Positions 7,553 to 12,658 of a stretch of DNA of 12,658 nucleotides are shown piece by piece (the stretch's first letter is position 1; each line of letters begins with the position of its first letter). The DNA is from a virus. Location: UHGV virus genome UHGV-1796775. One strand, 5' to 3'. Under the pieces are notes generated by a model. It had not been told where the DNA came from and made no database searches. It was given only the letters and a program-made list of their open reading frames with translations. The position numbers and the translations under genes are program-made.

Positions 7553-7731
7553 CTTGTTTTCCTCGCACGTTCTCTAAGCCACCGGATATCCCACAGGTGA
7601 GCCGTGTAGTTGAAGGTTTTTACGTCAGATTCTTTTGGGATTGGCTTGCGTTTATTTCTGGAGCGTTTCGTTGGAAGGTATTTGCAGTTTTCACAGATTA
7701 TGTCGGTGATGCTTCGTCGCTGTCGTCTCAT
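7549..7731 (-). CDS. ninE: NinE, 60 aa
   Basis: Internal ATG at 7731 ([23 protein letters not shown]...) overlaps the methyltransferase stop (ATGA). The ORF-track 90-aa version is an upstream extension into that gene. Confidence 0.75.
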
Positions 7732-8255
7732 GCCGCCCTCCTGACGCCCTGCCCGATCGCCATCAATGCCGCTTTGGATACGGTAGTAAACATCCGTCGA
7801 GGACTGATGAACGGTCGCCAAATCAGCAGCATGGAGCCTTTGCTGTTTCCCTTCTTCTCCAGCCCTGTCGATGGTTCGATAAAATTAATCCGTCCATCAG
7901 TGATAATACGAACTTCGTCAACACTCTCCAGAGCCTTGCTGAACCATCCGACAGACATATCCTCTGGCACAAGCATCACTACCGTCTGTCGTTGTTGTAT
8001 GCACTGCTCAGCGGCTTTTTCCACCCACGGCCTGATATTGCTGTACGGTGGGTTATTCCAGATTGCACCGTGGCTTATCCACTCAGAATTTAGCGCGTCG
8101 TCGGCCTCAGTTAGCCAGTGAGCGCACAGAGCATTTTTGTCGCTCGCTGCCGAATCCAGCCAGAATCCAAACTCAATATCCAGTGCATCAAAAAGCCAAA
8201 GCGGCGTTTGCCAGCAGTCCTTGTCGTGTGCTGGCGTATTTGATTTGATAGTCAT
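7728..8255 (-). CDS. Phage Dam-type DNA N6-adenine methyltransferase, 175 aa
   Basis: Catalytic NPPY motif ([10 protein letters not shown]) and the typical N-terminal [13 protein letters not shown] block of the phage Dam family. Preferred start is the ATG at 8255 (ATGA overlap with the NinB stop, GGAAGG Shine-Dalgarno); an alternative ATG at 8282 would add 9 residues. Confidence 0.8.
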
Positions 8256-8698
8256 GCAGCCTTCCCTTTTCGTTGTGACCATTCATACTCTCGCCGGGAG
8301 TCATCACTCCACCGCACGTTGCGCTCTGAGCCGAACCAGAACATGATTTCGATAAGCTCAGTCATGCTGGCCTTTCGCATTTTGCTGGTACGCACTCCAA
8401 GCATAACAACGCCACCGTCGATACCAGGCGCACTTCGTTGCTCCAGTTTTTTGGTCTTAAGCCACAGAGCAGTGAACAGATCTTTCCAGTCCTCCGGCGC
8501 AAGTCTCTGTCCATGCCAAAGCACCTGACGCGAAACATCGTTCAGCATCGGCCACATACGGTCATTCTGCGCTTTGCTCCGCTTGGGTTCTTTAATGTGG
8601 ACTTCGTGAGGTGACTTGTCGTCGATGGGAAGTGAGAGTATTGCGTCTATGGCGTTGTTTCTGATTGCTTCGTTGCGAAGCATGTATATTTGCTTCAT
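8252..8698 (-). CDS. ninB: NinB (Orf-family recombination mediator), 148 aa
   Basis: Homologous to lambda NinB from memory (e.g. LNDVSRQVLWHG, RNVRWSDD). ATG at 8698 with GAGGT upstream. Confidence 0.85.
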   Translation of the reverse strand: MKQIYMLRNEAIRNNAIDAILSLPIDDKSPHEVHIKEPKRSKAQNDRMWPMLNDVSRQVLWHGQRLAPEDWKDLFTALWLKTKKLEQRSAPGIDGGVVMLGVRTSKMRKASMTELIEIMFWFGSERNVRWSDDSRREYEWSQRKGKAA

Positions 8699-9280: not shown

Positions 9281-9313
9281 CAAATAAAAAGGCCTGCGAT
9301 TACCAGCAGGCCT
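9281..9313 (-). terminator. Intrinsic terminator downstream of the helicase gene (tR2-like position)
   Basis: Perfect 8-bp GC-rich inverted repeat AGGCCTGC / GCAGGCCT (plus 9290-9297 and 9306-9313) with an 8-nt loop, followed on the minus-strand RNA by UUUUUAUUU. Confidence 0.7.
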
Positions 9314-9341: not shown

Positions 9342-10778
9342 TCAGAATCCTCCTTTCTTCTTGGACTGCGGTTCCTCGCGTTCACGGCGGCGCATTTCAG
9401 CAGACTGTTGGTCTGTGTCATAAATAGCGCCATTTGCCTGAATGCAATACACCGTGCCGGTATTGCCATGACGATTGAGACGAAGGATTAGTTCAGTTTC
9501 ACCAGGTGGAACACTGTCATCAAAAGCGCCTTCACGATGGATCCCCACCCAATAATCGCAATCCTGTTCAATCTGCCCTGTATCTCGTGAGTCACTTGGT
9601 AATGGGCGTTTATTGGTTCGGCTTTCCAGTGCGCGGTTAAGCTGCGTCAGAAGCACAACAACGCAATCAAGCTCTTTGGCAAGGTTCTTCAGTCCTTTGG
9701 TGATCATGCCGTAGGCAAGGTCGTTGCGATCGGCCTTCTCAGCGGTCATTAGTGTCAGGTAATCGACCAGAATCATGCCAACACATCCTTTTTCTCGCTT
9801 GATTCGACGGCTTTCGCTGACGATTTGAGCCAGAGATAATCCCGGCGTGTCGTCGATGTAAAGCAGGTCGATTTCACTCAAGCGATTGGCTGTTTCGATC
9901 GCCCTGTTGAAGTCACCATCGTAATCACCCTGATAGCCGTCATCAGCGTCATTTGTCGCCGGAAGGTAAAAAATATTCGGGTTAACACCTGACTTCTGTC
10001 CTACCAGTTTTTCCAGTATCTGGTCACCGGGCATTTCAAGGCTGAACATCAGAGCAGGCTTTTTCTCATGCACTGCGCAGTTGATTGCCATCTGGCTGTA
10101 TAGTGTCGTTTTCCCCATCTTAGGGCGAGCGCCAATGACAAACAGAGAGCCTTTCACCAGACCTTTCGGTGACAGCATCCTGTCCAGCGATGGGATCCCT
10201 GTGCTCATTCCTCGCTGTTCGCCTGACGGGTCAAATCGCTTCTCAAGGTCGCTAACCCAGTCTTCCATGACCTCACCAAATGAGCGAAGGCCGCGACGCG
10301 ATCCGGTTTTTGCATGGTCTGTCAGTTGCGTGAAAATCGCCTGAATAGCTTCGTACTTCTGCGTTGCAGTCATTCCGTTGCGGGAATAGAGCAATTCCGT
10401 CGCTTCAGTCATGCGGTTGATGGCGTAGCGTTCCATTGCGGTTTCACGAACCTGCATTGCATAGGCAACGATGTTTGCGGCGCTTGGCGTGTTCTTTGCG
10501 ATCTCAGCGATATAAGCAAAACCGCCAACAGACGCCGTTAACGATTTACGCTCCAGTTCATCGAAAAGCGTCAGGCCATCTACTGGCTTTTGCTCCCGGT
10601 GCATTCTGGTTATTTCTTCGAAAAGGATTTTGTGTGGTCGGCTGTAAAATGAATCAGGCTTCAGCATCGCCAGAACTTTCTGGACGCGCTCACTGCTGTC
10701 ATCATCCAGAAGCAATCCACCAATCACCGCCTGCTCTGCCTCGATGCTATGGGGCGGCGCATAAAAATTATCGGTCAT
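9342..10778 (-). CDS. DnaB-family replicative DNA helicase, 478 aa
   Basis: Walker A GARPKMGKTT and conserved DnaB C-terminal domain blocks (LVDYLTLM, TGQIEQDCDY). ATG at 10778 with GAGGGTGA upstream (the ORF-track start at 10793 is a GTG). Overlaps the initiator gene end by 11 nt. Confidence 0.9.
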   Translation of the reverse strand: MTDNFYAPPHSIEAEQAVIGGLLLDDDSSERVQKVLAMLKPDSFYSRPHKILFEEITRMHREQKPVDGLTLFDELERKSLTASVGGFAYIAEIAKNTPSAANIVAYAMQVRETAMERYAINRMTEATELLYSRNGMTATQKYEAIQAIFTQLTDHAKTGSRRGLRSFGEVMEDWVSDLEKRFDPSGEQRGMSTGIPSLDRMLSPKGLVKGSLFVIGARPKMGKTTLYSQMAINCAVHEKKPALMFSLEMPGDQILEKLVGQKSGVNPNIFYLPATNDADDGYQGDYDGDFNRAIETANRLSEIDLLYIDDTPGLSLAQIVSESRRIKREKGCVGMILVDYLTLMTAEKADRNDLAYGMITKGLKNLAKELDCVVVLLTQLNRALESRTNKRPLPSDSRDTGQIEQDCDYWVGIHREGAFDDSVPPGETELILRLNRHGNTGTVYCIQANGAIYDTDQQSAEMRRREREEPQSKKKGGF

Positions 10779-11667
10779 CGTGTTCACCCTCACGAACTTT
10801 CAGGTAGGTATTGTCGTTAAGCAGGAAATCAAATCCCTTTTTGTGCCAGACAGTTCCGCGTTGATGGTTTGGACGCTCTTCGAACATCCATCGGCAATTT
10901 TCGCCTACGTAGCTCAAATAATTTCTCCAGTCCTGCATCGTGAACCCATGCCCGTCAAGCTGGCGGGTTATCACTCCGGCTTTGCGCCAGAACGTTCGGA
11001 TCTGGTTTTTACGCTTGTCATTCAGTGCGCGGATTCTTGGCGCTTCAGGAAGGATTTCGTGGTAAGCATCGACAACATCCTGACAGCTGACGGAAGGTTT
11101 TTTCTTGTCAGACTTTTTGTCTGCTGTGGCACTCTCTAATACGTCAGTATTAGAGATAATATTATTATATTCTTTATCTGTGGTAATTTGCTGGTAATCT
11201 GCTGGTACAGCATTGCTTACAGGCATTGGTATTGCTGGCTTTGAGGTGGTAATTTGCTGGTAATCTGCTGGTACAAAATTTGACTGATAATCGTCATATT
11301 TCTCTACCGAGAAAACTGAGAATTTACCGTGTGAAACCCAGTCAATCATGCCGAGTTTTTTGAACTTTCTAAGCAGGTACTGAACGCGATCTGGTTTGAG
11401 TCCTGTTTCAAACGCCAGAGAGTTTCTACCGCCAAGTAGCTTCCCTCTGCCTACCAGAATTTCTCCTGCGTCAGTCATTACATACTCAGGCGTATGCTTT
11501 GCTTTGAGGATTAAGTGAACCCACAGATGCGCAGCTTCTGCGTCCTTGTAAAACGGCACATCCATAATTTTACGGTGCAGCAAGGCATACCCCTTACCGC
11601 TGCTTTGATGCGGTTGTTGTAGCCTTCTGGCCTCTCTGGCTTCGGCTAGATTAGATATGTTACTCAT
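10768..11667 (-). CDS. Replication initiator (lambda O-like / P22 gp18-like), 299 aa, containing the origin
   Basis: ATG at 11667 with AAGGAG upstream. Iteron repeats and an AT-rich tract lie inside the coding sequence, giving the repeated peptide [10 protein letters not shown]. Followed directly by the helicase gene, as in lambdoid replication modules. Confidence 0.85.
11134..11178. promoter_or_regulatory. Origin AT-rich unwinding region with a 22-bp perfect palindrome
   Basis: CTCTAATAC-GTCA-GTATTAGAG (11134-11155; 9-bp perfect arms) followed by AT-rich ATAATATTATTATATTCTTTATC, immediately adjacent to the iterons. Confidence 0.6.
11180..11275. repeat. Origin iterons (ori) inside the initiator gene
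   Basis: Two exact 28-bp copies of GGTAATTTGCTGGTAATCTGCTGGTACA at 11182-11209 and 11248-11275, each made of two ~12-bp units GGTAAT(T/C)TGCTG. A degenerate unit sits between them (GGTATTGCTGG, about 11229-11239). Confidence 0.8.
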
Positions 11668-11806
11668 GACCTTTCTCCTTCTGCATCAGCTTCACCTTTT
11701 CCAACTCAGCCCGGAATCGACCAGGCTGCTTGAAGCTGGACAGGAAGCGATCACGTAGTATGTGTTTGTGAATTTTGTCCTGGTAAGGACTGAGTTGTTT
11801 TGTCAT
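11660..11806 (-). CDS. Small hypothetical protein, 48 aa, between cII and the initiator
   Basis: Not in the ORF track. ATG at 11806 with AGGAG 5 nt upstream; translation [48 protein letters not shown]. Its TAA stop overlaps the initiator ATG. The start context GGAGTCATTATGACAAA is the one I recall for lambda O. Confidence 0.5.
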
Positions 11807-11818
11807 AATGACTCCTGT

Positions 11819-11895
11819 GGATTGATCCAGTAATGACCTCAGAACTCCATCTGGATTTGATCAGAACGCTCGGTTGCCGCCGGGCGTTTTTTATT
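11819..11895 (+). ncRNA. oop: oop antisense RNA (lambda-type), overlapping the cII 3' end
   Basis: Plus-strand GATTGATCCAGTAATGACCTCAGAACTCCATCTGGATTTGATCAGAACGCTCGGTTGCCGCCGGGCGTTTTTTATT matches lambda oop from memory. Terminator hairpin CGCTCGG/CCGGGCG at 11867-11886 plus a T6 tract; CATAAT -10 at 11804-11809. The 5' end is approximate. Confidence 0.7.
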
Positions 11896-12132
11896 GGTGA
11901 GAATCGAAGCAACTTGTCGTGCCAATCGAGCCATATCGTCGTCAACGACGCCCCATTCAAGAACAGCAAGCAGCATTGAGAACTTTGGAATCCAGTCCCT
12001 CTTCCACCTGCTGATCTGCGACTTATCAACTCCCACAGCTTCCGCTGTCTTCTCAGTTCCAAGCATTGCGATTTTGTTAAGCAACGCACTCTCGATTCGT
12101 AGAGCCTCGTTGCGTTTGTTTGCACGAACCAT
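11839..12132 (-). CDS. cII: Transcriptional activator CII (lambda-type), 97 aa
   Basis: Internal ATG at 12132 gives [66 protein letters not shown]..., lambda CII nearly residue for residue. The ORF-track N-terminal extension runs into nutR and is not translated. Confidence 0.93.
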
Positions 12133-12201
12133 ATGTAAGTATTTCCTTAGATAACAATTGATTGAATGTATGCAAATAAATGCATACACCATAGGTGTGG
12201 T

Positions 12202-12251: not shown

Positions 12252-12467
12252 TTAAGCGGCTTTGTGTTCCGGCGGGAACACGTCATCAAGACTGACTTTT
12301 GCGCCTAACTTGTTTAGGCACTCAACAAGAGCACGGCATGTTTTAAGGTCTGGGAAGCGACGACCAGATTCCCAATGTCCGATAGCTCCCTGTGTGCATC
12401 CAACTGCCTTAGCAAGTGTTGTTTGAGAGATATTCAGTGACTCTCGATATTTTCGTAGGTTGCTCAT
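12252..12467 (-). CDS. cro: Cro-like HTH repressor (XRE family), 71 aa
   Basis: ATG at 12467 with GGAGGG 3 nt upstream gives MSNLRKYRESLNISQTTLAKAVGCTQGAIGHWESGRR..., a helix-turn-helix protein. Not lambda Cro. The ORF-track upstream extension covers the operator region. Confidence 0.8.
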   Translation of the reverse strand: MSNLRKYRESLNISQTTLAKAVGCTQGAIGHWESGRRFPDLKTCRALVECLNKLGAKVSLDDVFPPEHKAA

Positions 12468-12493
12468 ATGCCCTCCATAGTAACCATGAAACA

Positions 12494-12522
12494 ATAATAC
12501 GATATGTACTTTTAGAATGCAA
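12494..12522 (-). promoter_or_regulatory. Candidate PR promoter for cro
   Basis: On the minus strand, TTGCAT (-35, plus 12517-12522), a 17-bp spacer, then TATTAT (-10, plus 12494-12499), about 25 nt upstream of the cro ATG. Lies in the AT-rich divergent intergenic region 12468-12578. Confidence 0.5.
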
Positions 12523-12578
12523 ACAAAAAATACATCTTGTGCATGGATGGTTTTAGTACAGAGCGTAATAATAAGGGT

Positions 12579-12658
12579 ATGAAAATGAAATGGTATGAAC
12601 TGGCTAGATCCAGAATGAAAGAGCTCGGCATAACTCAAGAGAAGTTAGCCGAAGAGCT
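12579..12658 (+). CDS. CI-like repressor, N-terminal fragment (truncated by the window edge)
   Basis: ATG at 12579 gives MKMKWYELARSRMKELGITQEKLAEEL, the start of an HTH (XRE-type) domain, divergent from cro. Only 26 codons are visible. Confidence 0.6.
   Translation, partial: MKMKWYELARSRMKELGITQEKLAEE

Follow-up and report, generated by a model that had tools for sequence, protein, structure and literature searches.

A perfect palindrome maintained by paired changes in the putative replication origin of HK022/L-type lambdoid phages

The replication origin of phage lambda lies within the initiator gene O, in the central part that codes for the linker, and is transcribed from pR. In the direction of transcription, four iterons of 18-19 bp with internal dyad symmetry, spaced at 20, 24 and 23 nt, are followed by an AT tract and a dyad with a 4-nt loop. 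Read from the lambda genome (NC_001416), this dyad has 12-nt arms of which 11 of 12 positions are paired (92%); in phage 933W, 10 of 12 are paired. Dyads of the lambda type are imperfect and are conserved in sequence, not by compensation. The lambda replicative helicase is the host DnaB, delivered by the P loader. P22, with its origin in gene 18, has the same layout of iterons, AT tract and hairpin, combining a lambda-type N-terminal initiator domain (TIGR01610) and four lambda-style iterons of ~20 bp (spacing 20/24/23) with a short, GC-rich hairpin (CCCCCT..AGGGGG) and its own DnaB-type helicase, gp12. A short GC hairpin occupies the same place in HK97. Our set of lambda-type origins for comparison was taken from spread rows of a tblastn search against a phage collection.

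Direct repeats bound by an initiator beside an AT-rich unwinding element are also found at theta plasmid origins such as those of pSC101, R6K, F and P1, where the iterons measure ~17-22 bp, are usually spaced at two helical turns and usually lie outside the rep gene. Gram-positive phages have origins inside genes for a 'replisome organizer' or DnaD-like initiator, as in oriL of SPP1. To our knowledge, a conserved perfect palindrome is not a recognised part of either kind of origin.

Among the closest described systems are the predicted origins of the Salmonella phages L and ST64T (gene 18) and of the Shigella phage Sf6 and HK620 (gene 43), which consist of six 11-bp repeats TGTCCAACGGA. The origin of L was predicted in this form in an earlier study, which also cites genetic data according to which P22 accepts the L replication region in place of its own only as a whole (PMC8022706). 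In the L and Sf6 records, rep_origin features are annotated at positions homologous to those discussed below. In our literature search, no experiment was found that shows an active origin or binding by the initiator in the HK022/L type, where annotation is by analogy.

Here we analyse an element of this type in the virus genome UHGV-1796775, a stretch of 12,658 nt that we refer to as the window. To judge by its sequence and that of its relatives, the element is probably the theta (bidirectional) origin of an HK022/L-type lambdoid prophage, located within its own initiator gene, in the middle part that codes for the linker. As an origin call this adds little, since the element is labelled in GenBank and the type has been discussed in print. 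The new point is that the symmetry of a palindrome within it is held through paired changes across many relatives.

The initiator gene and the architecture of the element

The initiator gene (10768-11667, minus strand) was identified by its open reading frame and translation and codes for a 299-residue protein of the HK022 O/phage L gp18 type. Its DNA is 99% identical to that of HK022, VT2-Sakai, the Stx1 phage and mEp235, and the protein is 65% identical to L gp18 and matches PHROG 345 ('replication initiation O-like') over its full length. We distinguish an N-terminal domain (residues ~25-125), a linker coded by the origin DNA (~126-190) and a C-terminal domain (~191-299). The C-terminal half aligns with P22 gp18 at 25% identity (E=1e-4). 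Matches to the N-terminal domain come from phage proteins of Staphylococcus and Lactobacillus and from the N-terminal regions of PHROGs that bear the label 'DnaD-like helicase loader'. The domain is not of the lambda O type: the TIGR01610 model gives 132.6 bits with lambda O and 85.9 bits with P22 gp18, whereas the window initiator has no match at E<=0.01. A Pfam search of the initiator returned neither Phage_rep_O nor any other family, and BLASTP against lambda O was not significant. A sequence search of the PDB with the N-terminal domain gave nothing significant, the weak match to a wHTH-like fold at residues 83-117 having an E-value of 0.6. A single-sequence AlphaFold model of the protein had a mean pLDDT of 43.8, too low for use.

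Directly downstream, and overlapping the end of the initiator gene with its start, is a gene for a DnaB-type replicative helicase (9342-10793, minus strand; Pfam DnaB 3.5e-31, DnaB_C 3e-60), annotated in relatives as 'P' of HK022 or gp12 of P22 type. It encodes a full-length DnaB-family helicase and not a loader of the lambda P type, and its product is the presumed partner recruited by the initiator C-terminal domain. The gene order is cI-like HTH, cII, orf48 (DUF2740), initiator, DnaB-type helicase, NinB and the remainder of the nin region. The element is common: of 5426 complete E. coli genomes, 374 have it. Among the phage records with the initiator gene are those of the O157:H7 Sakai Stx phages VT2-Sakai and Stx1.

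The core of the element is an exact 30-nt direct repeat at 11180-11209 and 11246-11275, with a start-to-start distance of 66 nt; in a wider comparison of 11180-11214 with 11246-11280, 33 of 35 positions are identical. When the window was shuffled 200 times with dinucleotides preserved, exact direct repeats within 150 nt reached 14 nt at most (mean of the longest, 10.3). Read on the coding (minus) strand, each repeat resolves into three units with a period of 11 nt (TACCAGCAGAT, TACCAGCAAAT, TACCAC..). Block 1 (11241-11273) comprises TACCAGCAGAT at 11263-11273, TACCAGCAAAT at 11252-11262 and TACCACCTCAA at 11241-11251, and block 2 (11175-11207) comprises TACCAGCAGAT at 11197-11207, TACCAGCAAAT at 11186-11196 and TACCACAGATA at 11175-11185. 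All are direct repeats, and none has a dyad inside it. Within the 12.7 kb of the window, exact copies of the 11-mer TACCAGCARAT number four, all of which lie in the two blocks. Between the blocks lies a spacer of 33 nt, or three unit lengths (11208-11240, minus strand), of which the length is kept but not the sequence. The repeats fall at positions 393-493 of the 900-nt gene and are translated in frame, so that the same 10-residue peptide is coded twice. A preliminary description of this DNA had recognised the two identical blocks, their 66-bp offset and the one-turn spacing of the iterons, all of which we confirm, but had taken the blocks to be 28 bp long with two iterons of ~12 bp each, where we find 30 nt and three units of 11 nt. 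It had also pointed to a degenerate unit; the sequence that we assign to it, AGCCAGCAATA at 11230-11240 in the first slot of the spacer, is in the 11-nt register and matches at 7 of 11 positions, a weak resemblance, and the slot holds unrelated sequence in other iteron lineages.

An additional in-phase candidate, TACCACGAAAT at 11054-11064, downstream of the palindrome and 132 nt from a true unit, was rejected as a seventh iteron. It codes for AYHEIL, belongs to the shared C-terminal module, and is present in L and Sf6, which have different iterons, and absent from L020, which has the same ones. Across the window, iteron-like 11-mers number 22 against 6 expected at up to two mismatches and lie mostly on the coding strand, an excess that we attribute to oligonucleotide and codon bias destroyed by shuffling. 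No DnaA box (TTWTNCACA, up to one mismatch) was found within 1 kb of the origin, and their total in the window is below expectation.

In the direction of transcription (minus strand), block 1, the spacer and block 2 are followed by an AT-rich tract and a palindrome. The tract (11157-11181; 25 nt, 88% AT), already noted in the preliminary description, overlaps the last unit of block 2 and is the presumed DNA-unwinding element. The 30-nt GC minimum of the initiator gene, 13%, is located here, at 11150-11179. The palindrome (11133-11156), TCTCTAATAC-GTCA-GTATTAGAGA on the plus strand, is perfect, as had been reported, with arms of 10 nt around a 4-nt loop and not the 9-nt arms previously assigned to 11134-11155 (22 bp); it codes for ISNTDVLE. 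No other palindrome in the window has arms of at least 10 nt. Since 12% of shuffles contain such a palindrome somewhere, its mere occurrence is not improbable, and what makes it significant is that relatives have conserved it. For the DNA hairpin, the predicted energies of the two strands are -7.6 and -7.5 kcal/mol (z = -5.1 and -5.5). Rfam gave no match, either for the whole window at the gathering threshold or for 11050-11350 at E<=1.

Relation to described origins

Comparison and existing annotation (VT2-Sakai, L, Sf6) support the earlier proposal that an origin lies inside the initiator gene. In the VT2-Sakai record (AP000422.1), two misc_binding features, 'ori iteron 1' and 'ori iteron 2', map to 11246-11275 and 11180-11209. 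HK022, VT2-Sakai, the Stx1 phage (AP005153), mEp235, HK630 and CP-1639 carry the same element with no substantive difference, HK022 deviating at a single position of block 2 (TCCCAGC) and at a few in the spacer. The records of this group label the two blocks only, and neither the AT tract nor the palindrome.

The L/Sf6 group shares with the window the initiator family (65-67% identity), the arrangement of 3 + 3 units of 11 nt at an offset of 66 nt, the AT tract, the palindrome TCTCTAATAC..GTATTAGAGA, a near-identical C-terminal domain and the adjoining DnaB-type helicase gene. It differs in the sequence of the units (TGTCCAACG vs TACCAGCA) and in the N-terminal domain, which is ~50% identical. 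We read this pattern as a different origin specificity placed on the same right-hand module, with the joint at the boundary between AT tract and palindrome. The locus resembles the putative HK022/L-type origins in its location within the gene, its two sets of three repeats at 66 nt, its public annotation and its AT tract and palindrome, the last two being established as a feature of the family in this analysis.

The order of iterons, AT tract and dyad is common to the window and lambda, as are the site within the initiator gene, the 4-nt loop of the dyad and transcription from pR, in keeping with the earlier view of an ori-lambda-like layout with shorter iterons (here 11 nt). From ori-lambda in the strict sense (lambda, 434, 21, 933W) the locus differs in the DNA-binding domain of the initiator, in iteron type (six direct 11-nt units in two blocks in place of four, or up to six, iterons that are each an imperfect inverted repeat) and in helicase delivery, the phage having its own DnaB-type helicase in place of P and host DnaB; it agrees in having an AT tract followed by a short-loop dyad. 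The palindrome had been described as an addition to the lambda arrangement, but this does not hold, since in lambda, too, a dyad (12/4/12) comes immediately after the AT tract. The lambda-type dyad tolerates an uncompensated change, so that pairing is not obviously needed in that branch.

Conservation and covariation among relatives

All 36 relatives have two sets of three units with an AT tract and a palindrome, and in 33 of them the blocks are offset by 66 nt. Within a genome, blocks 1 and 2 are alike at a mean of 28.8 of 33 positions, whereas the spacer reaches 8.4 of 33, the level expected by chance (30 distinct genomes). Differences between the blocks number 35, 44 and 46 at codon positions 1, 2 and 3, with no concentration at synonymous sites; from this even spread we conclude that the likeness of the blocks is maintained at the level of nucleotides. 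The units themselves fall into types by lineage (TACCAGC, TGTCCAA, TGTCCAG, TGCCAAC, AATCCAA). Typing by these 7-mers, on which the comparison with protein domains rests because identity by register is blurred by small register shifts and was left out, shows that unit type follows the N-terminal and not the C-terminal domain of the initiator; this holds even between initiators with unrelated C-terminal domains, and the converse is also seen. A duplicated 10-residue peptide is found in all relatives, but its sequence differs completely between lineages while the geometry of the DNA is constant. At the same place in almost all relatives a 24-mer of 83-92% AT is found, the lowest value being 79%. 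More distant relatives in Pseudomonas and Vibrio phages (~27% identity) have repeats with an 11-nt period in two groups, followed by an A-rich tract; the long perfect palindrome is absent from them.

In all 36 relatives, and also in Erwinia phage 59, a perfect palindrome with arms of 9-11 nt occupies the same position in the gene. Its geometry (22-24 nt, loop of 2-4 nt) is retained down to ~45% protein identity and across different C-terminal modules. The sequence of the arms is not retained: there are at least 12 variants, all within one order of bacteria, an example being ACTTACTACC-TAAC-GGTAGTAAGT in CobraSix. Across the 18 distinct sequences, each of the ten arm pairs shows change in both partners. 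For the inner nine, Watson-Crick pairing holds in 162 of 162 cells, and no one-sided (G-T) state is seen in spite of 45 double changes. The covariation score of 0.79 compares with 0.18 in shuffles, none of 500 reaching the observed value, and with 0.08-0.19 for slid controls. Some positions are near-fixed, namely C6/T7, pairing with A26/G27, and a centre of the form C-T-R-A-M-G. The peptide coded by the palindrome varies among relatives, and symmetry therefore overrides coding. Taken together, the covariation of the arms suggests that intrastrand pairing of the DNA, as a hairpin or cruciform, is a selected component of the origin.

We considered whether the arms co-evolve with either domain of the initiator. 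Arm identity is correlated with C-terminal-domain identity (Spearman rho 0.55), but there are counter-examples both ways. The same arms accompany C-terminal domains of 48-59% identity; conversely, where C-terminal domains are at least 80% identical, the arms may differ at 2 to 7 of 10 positions, 7 being the value for the most divergent pair. In Erwinia phage 59, the palindrome precedes a lambda-type C-terminal domain and a lambda-P-type loader. Co-evolution with the N- or C-terminal domain was accordingly rejected and the correlation put down to linkage across a mosaic joint, which recurs at the boundary between AT tract and palindrome; the palindrome sits exactly there.

A model for initiation and alternative explanations

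In the model that we favour, the six 11-nt units, arranged on one helical face as three units, a 33-nt spacer and three units, would be bound by the N-terminal domain of the initiator; the location and covariation of the units are observed, and from these we infer binding. On supercoiled DNA, the initiator-DNA complex may then destabilise the adjacent 25-nt AT tract, by analogy with the lambda O-some. The C-terminal domain would recruit the DnaB-type helicase of the phage itself, replacing lambda P and host DnaB, as homology and gene order suggest. At the far edge of the AT tract, the palindrome would pair within each strand, forming a hairpin or cruciform as the tract opens. In what is the least certain step, this structure would hold the bubble or set its limits, and would provide a junction of single strand and duplex where the helicase could load. 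Comparison among relatives points to selection for pairing of the arms; the particular part of the palindrome in initiation is what we infer.

We tentatively propose, as one possibility among several, that the palindrome is a structure-specific part of the origin, selected to self-pair on both strands whatever its sequence, as a cruciform in duplex DNA or as hairpins after melting of the AT tract, trapping or delimiting the open complex and providing a junction for the helicase, and that it may also be a target of defence systems and a hotspot of breakage and recombination. A hotspot of this kind may account for the position of the mosaic joint, which separates the iteron/N-terminal module from the C-terminal/helicase module exactly at the edge of the palindrome. 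The defence systems Lamassu and OLD have been reported to detect an origin hairpin at the origin of phage lambda (PMC12663957; bioRxiv 10.64898/2026.07.10.737580).

The iterons and AT tract could form an origin in which the palindrome is a dyad site for a dimeric protein, either a co-evolving phage protein or a host factor, and the DNA never pairs with itself. The near-fixed positions do look like a contacted site, the correlation of the arms with the C-terminal domain is of moderate size, and the lambda-type dyad is conserved in sequence and not by compensation. A protein site, however, needs no complementarity at positions that are not contacted, and the variable positions of the palindrome are complementary in every inner cell. 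The number of arm variants within a single bacterial order argues against a host factor, and a co-evolving phage protein fits poorly with the mismatch between arms and C-terminal domains in both directions, with the occurrence of the palindrome beside the C-terminal domain and loader of Erwinia phage 59, and with linkage at the mosaic joint as the explanation of the correlation. We regard a dimer site as rather unlikely. An action as RNA is highly improbable, whether as an O-mRNA hairpin with an effect on pausing, processing or stability, or as an intrinsic terminator of antisense transcription on the plus strand. In a loose consensus scan, 11133-11156 on the plus strand, together with the tail TAATATTATT, does score as terminator-like, and the phage L record has an antisense-strand 'terminator' over the same palindrome; the stem, though, has only three G-C pairs, and A residues break up the tail. 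The scan picked up no promoter-like site on either strand in 10700-11900, the hairpin is not followed by a U-run on the sense strand, and Rfam is silent on the region at E<=1. RNA helices, moreover, normally tolerate G-U pairs, and no G-U-type state occurs among the inner-pair cells for all their double changes.

Template switching is an established mutational mechanism that introduces paired changes in a single step. The palindrome could on this basis be a neutral passenger at the mosaic joint, with no function of its own and kept perfect by hairpin-templated (quasi-palindrome) correction. Such a process would explain the absence of one-sided intermediates, and the palindrome does lie exactly at a recurrent recombination joint. 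Yet the same position and geometry are found in 36 of 36 lineages and across different C-terminal modules, although the linker peptide is free to vary and loss would therefore be tolerated, and a dyad is present at this place also in the lambda, P22 and HK97 types, whose N-terminal domains are unrelated. A passenger without function is improbable on these grounds. Hairpin-templated strand switching may nevertheless account for part of the perfection of the palindrome, in place of a role in initiation. We give almost no credence to the remaining reading, that the repeats matter only as protein, forming a duplicated linker peptide for protein interaction with the origin located elsewhere. The repeat is in frame and translated, and every relative has the duplicated peptide, but the differences between copies are even over codon positions, the 11-nt period is out of step with codons, the peptide changes between lineages at constant DNA geometry while unit type tracks the N-terminal domain, and no alternative structure of repeats plus AT tract was seen in the replication module.

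Implications for lambdoid and Stx phages

Within the literature found in our search, the role of the dyad at lambdoid origins is not addressed, and nothing relevant describing the origin palindrome of lambda was found. Biochemical work on Stx-phage origins has so far concerned the lambda type, and a study of these phages covers only lambda-type O proteins and origins (PMC7466680). The element analysed here would represent a second type of Stx-phage origin, with a different DNA-binding domain, direct 11-nt iterons and a helicase of its own. This second type would drive replication, and hence the copy number of the toxin genes, in important Stx phages. The complete covariation of the palindrome arms is unusually clean comparative evidence that a secondary structure of the DNA, and not its sequence, is the object of selection at a phage theta origin.

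The predicted origin and its genetic context

The predicted origin lies in the middle of the initiator gene (10768-11667, 299 aa). The window covers the early-right and late-left regions of a lambdoid prophage, and nearly all of its genes are on the minus strand. An exact 30-nt direct repeat on the plus strand forms two iteron blocks, block 1 at 11246-11275 and block 2 at 11180-11209, which are 66 nt apart from start to start and match at 33/35 positions over 35 nt. When the window was shuffled 200 times with dinucleotides preserved, no exact repeat within 150 nt was longer than 14 nt. Each block consists, on the coding strand, of three units with an 11-nt period (TACCAGCAGAT, TACCAGCAAAT, TACCAC..), and all four copies of the exact unit TACCAGCARAT in the window are located in the blocks. 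Downstream in the sense of transcription follows an AT tract (11157-11181, 88% AT); the GC minimum of the gene is 13%, at 11150-11179. Beyond the tract lies a perfect palindrome (11133-11156) with 10-nt arms and a 4-nt loop, whose folding energy as DNA is -7.6/-7.5 kcal/mol for the two strands (z about -5). No other palindrome in the window has arms of at least 10 nt, although one of this size also arises in 12% of shuffles and is by itself not improbable.

The blocks, their 66-nt spacing, the AT tract and the perfect palindrome within the initiator gene are thus all present as recorded in the preliminary description. The blocks are an identical pair of 30 rather than 28 nt by exact match, the palindrome arms measure 10 rather than 9 nt, and each block holds three units instead of two. 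A degenerate unit that had been proposed (11230-11240) is in register, but matches weakly, at 7/11 positions, and does not characterise the family. The window as a whole is enriched in iteron-like 11-mers (up to two mismatches to TACCAGCARAT), with 22 copies against 6.0 +/- 2.4 expected; 0/200 shuffles had as many. The majority lie on the coding strand, and the excess probably reflects codon or oligonucleotide bias, not additional binding sites. An in-phase copy at 11054-11064 proved coincidental and was rejected as a further unit.

Genes for a cI-like HTH repressor (12252-12638), cII (11839-12135, placed by correspondence with VT2-Sakai) and the small orf48/DUF2740 product (11660-11806) precede the initiator gene. 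A DnaB-family helicase gene (9342-10793) follows it, and then, in order, NinB, Dam, NinE, NinG, phosphoesterase, Q, holin, Rz and the small and large terminase. The Dam-type adenine methyltransferase of the nin region is encoded at 7728-8282. Packaging is encoded by genes of P22/Sf6 type (51-2685; gp3 small terminase, Terminase_6 large subunit, Sf6 gene 66 family), which makes the prophage a P22/Sf6-like podovirus mosaic; its replication module is common to Stx phages. A strong intrinsic-terminator-like hairpin on the plus strand (11863-11890; 12 pairs, 6 of them G-C, then TTTTTTATT) is antisense to the cII 3' end, where lambda and P22 have the oop RNA terminator. The window contains three further perfect palindromes whose arms measure at least 8 nt, at 1650-1672, at 9290-9313 just downstream of the helicase stop codon, and at 12167-12188 upstream of cII.

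As a predicted origin, the element is already on record. The initiator gene shares 99% identity with O of HK022, VT2-Sakai, the Sakai Stx1 phage, Stx2 phage 86, CP-1639, mEp235 and HK630, and VT2-Sakai (AP000422.1) has 'ori iteron 1' and 'ori iteron 2' annotated as misc_binding features that map exactly to blocks 1 and 2. Salmonella phage L and Shigella phage Sf6 have ~65%-identical initiators with rep_origin features at the homologous place, with the notes 'putative origin of replication' and 'repeat region reminiscent of the phage lambda origin; similar to phage HK620'. We found the 171-nt origin in 374 of 5426 complete E. coli genomes.

Iterons and the initiator N-terminal domain

Lambda O and P22 gp18 match TIGR01610 (phage_O_Nterm), whereas the window initiator matches neither this model nor any Pfam O model. 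BLASTP against lambda O gave no significant alignment, and with P22 gp18 the C-terminal half alone aligns (25% identity, E=1e-4). Among PHROGs, family 345 ('replication initiation O-like') matches the entire protein, and families named 'DnaD-like helicase loader' match the N-terminal part as well; tblastn reaches proteins of Staphylococcus and Lactobacillus phages. Judged from these comparisons, the window initiator is not a lambda O orthologue in its putative DNA-binding part. Its N-terminal domain is unlike that of lambda O and P22 gp18, and a different N-terminal domain therefore pairs with iterons of another design: the window has direct 11-nt units in helical phase, lambda and P22 have four ~19-bp iterons with internal dyad symmetry and 20/24/23-nt spacing. 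The C-terminal domain goes with the phage's own helicase.

We compared 36 initiator genes of this HK022/L family, from eight phage records, the window and 27 full-length loci drawn from a scan of Enterobacterales with one genome per species. All 36 encode a duplicated linker peptide of ~10 residues and share one DNA layout, in which two sets of three units flank a 33-nt spacer and are followed by an AT tract (79-92% AT over 24 nt) and a perfect palindrome. The block offset is 66 nt in 33/36. In two prophages, from Silvania (L033) and Leclercia (L034), the three units of each block repeat every 12 nt and the blocks are 68 nt apart (gene positions ~416-520); their AT tract and palindrome (TCTCTTCTAC..GTAGAAGAGA) are unchanged.

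The unit sequence varies by lineage (TACCAGC, TGTCCAAC, TGTCCAGC, (G)TGCCAAC, TTACCAAC, AATCCAA) around a common CCA(A/G) core. Within a genome, the two blocks are identical at 28.8/33 positions on average (30 distinct genomes), against a chance-level 8.4/33 between spacer and block. Between-block differences number 35/44/46 at codon positions 1/2/3 and are therefore not concentrated at synonymous sites. The TACCAGC type is confined to initiators whose N-terminal domain shares at least 75% identity with that of the window, and is found in the locus L020 although its C-terminal domain is merely 43% identical. Phages L and Sf6, with C-terminal domains 94-100% and N-terminal domains ~50% identical to the window's, have TGTCCAA iterons. 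Initiators of only ~27% identity from Pseudomonas and Vibrio phages also contain two groups of 11-nt-period direct repeats followed by an A-rich tract; the groups are 79 nt apart in Pseudomonas phage Orisa01 (L127, 520-700) and Vibrio phage 1.228.O (L129, 980-1170). After the A-rich tract, Orisa01 has GAAGAAG-N8-CTTCTTC, and 1.228.O has tandem 9-mers (AATAAGGAG) and no palindrome. Because the blocks agree within genomes, the unit type tracks the N-terminal domain and distant relatives keep such repeats, we conclude that the repeats are selected as DNA and tied to the N-terminal domain of the initiator.

Covariation of the palindrome arms

In all 36 genes the palindrome is perfect and constant in position; its arms measure 9-11 nt and its loop 2-4 nt, and it spans 22-24 nt. 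At least 12 different arm sequences occur, for example TCTCTAATAC, TCTCTTCTAC, ACTTACTACC, CAATACTATC, ACTCATTAGAT, ACTCAATATCT and CTCTATTAC. Across 18 distinct 32-mers, 10/10 pairs have changed on both sides, and the inner nine pairs are Watson-Crick in 162/162 cells, with zero one-sided (G-T/G-U) states. Overall, 97.8% of cells are paired, compared to 64% in shuffles (0/500 as high as observed) and 29-51% when the partner is shifted by 1-3 columns; for the covariation score, the corresponding values are 0.79, 0.18 and 0.08-0.19. As read from this alignment, covariation demonstrates selection for pairing of the arms. The encoded peptide varies freely among relatives, so the DNA symmetry is imposed on the protein rather than the other way round. 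There is no coupling between arm sequence and either protein domain: identical arms accompany C-terminal domains 48-59% identical, and arms differing at two or more of ten positions (seven in the most divergent pair) accompany C-terminal domains at least 80% identical.

Strict complementarity at otherwise free positions is predicted by intrastrand pairing and not by a duplex protein site, such as the palindrome would be if a dimeric binding protein co-evolved with it. It might also act as an RNA hairpin or antisense terminator, in line with the terminator-like appearance of the palindrome in a loose scan and a terminator feature at this place in the phage L record; the absence of wobble states argues for pairing of DNA rather than RNA. 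Alternatively, the palindrome may persist neutrally through hairpin-templated correction. On account of the complementarity at free positions and the lack of wobble, we favour a DNA hairpin or cruciform that would form as the adjoining AT tract opens. AT-rich flanks promote cruciform extrusion. An antisense ORF of 119 aa within the initiator gene (10780-11139, plus strand), annotated as hypothetical protein ORF b66 in the Stx1 phage record, ends at the palindrome; it is probably not a gene, as our scan revealed no promoter-like site for it.

The observed location and gene context, the DNA-level selection on the iterons, their link to the N-terminal domain and the selection for arm pairing lead us to propose a mechanism in which this domain would bind the six in-phase units and the initiator complex would melt the AT tract on supercoiled DNA. 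The C-terminal domain would then recruit the phage helicase encoded next door, while the palindrome would self-pair at the edge of the bubble, where it may keep the bubble open, delimit it, or provide a junction for helicase loading.

A shared layout of lambdoid origins

The palindrome had been described as an addition to the ori-lambda architecture, but lambda itself (NC_001416) has a dyad after its AT tract, and this part of the preliminary description was wrong about ori-lambda. With this and the number of units per block corrected, the origin interpretation is supported. In lambda, four iterons and ~40 nt of AT-rich DNA precede GTCAGAGAATTC-tggc-GAATCCTCTGAC, a dyad with 12-nt arms (11/12 paired) and a 4-nt loop. 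933W, PhiR30_1, SEN34 and HK225 keep the lambda dyad sequence with one or two positions unpaired, and the dyad position is taken by a short GC hairpin (CCCCCT..AGGGGG) in P22 and HK97. Every lambdoid origin examined here thus has iterons, AT tract and dyad in this layout.

Erwinia phage vB_EhrS_59 (L128, 1082-1230) encodes a hybrid initiator with an HK022-type N-terminal domain. Two identical 31-nt iteron blocks of HK022 type, 66 nt apart, are followed by a perfect palindrome (ATCTAATAC-TAAC-GTATTAGAT) and immediately by GTCAGAGAATT, half of a lambda-type dyad; further on come a lambda-type C-terminal domain and a lambda-P-type loader gene. A mosaic joint recurs exactly at the boundary of AT tract and palindrome (~11157-11161, gene position ~507-511) in the comparison loci L004, L005, L015 and L020. 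Relative to phages L and Sf6, DNA identity is ~40-60% upstream of this boundary and 93-100% from the palindrome on; the pattern is reversed relative to L015 and L020. The lambda record places two misc_recomb features (39157/8, 39165/6) at the equivalent boundary of AT tract and dyad.

For phage L, PMC8022706 predicts that six 11-bp repeats form the origin. According to that paper, the initiators of lambda, P22 and L each bind different iterons within their own coding region, and earlier genetics showed that the P22 replication region can be replaced only by the whole L region, not by single genes. The Stx-phage origin biochemistry in PMC7466680 concerns lambda-type O and origins only. The HK022/L-type origin represents a second lambdoid origin type, common in Stx phages, for which our literature search turned up no experiment. 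The covariation of its arms makes the role of the origin dyad directly testable with arm-swap and compensation mutants.
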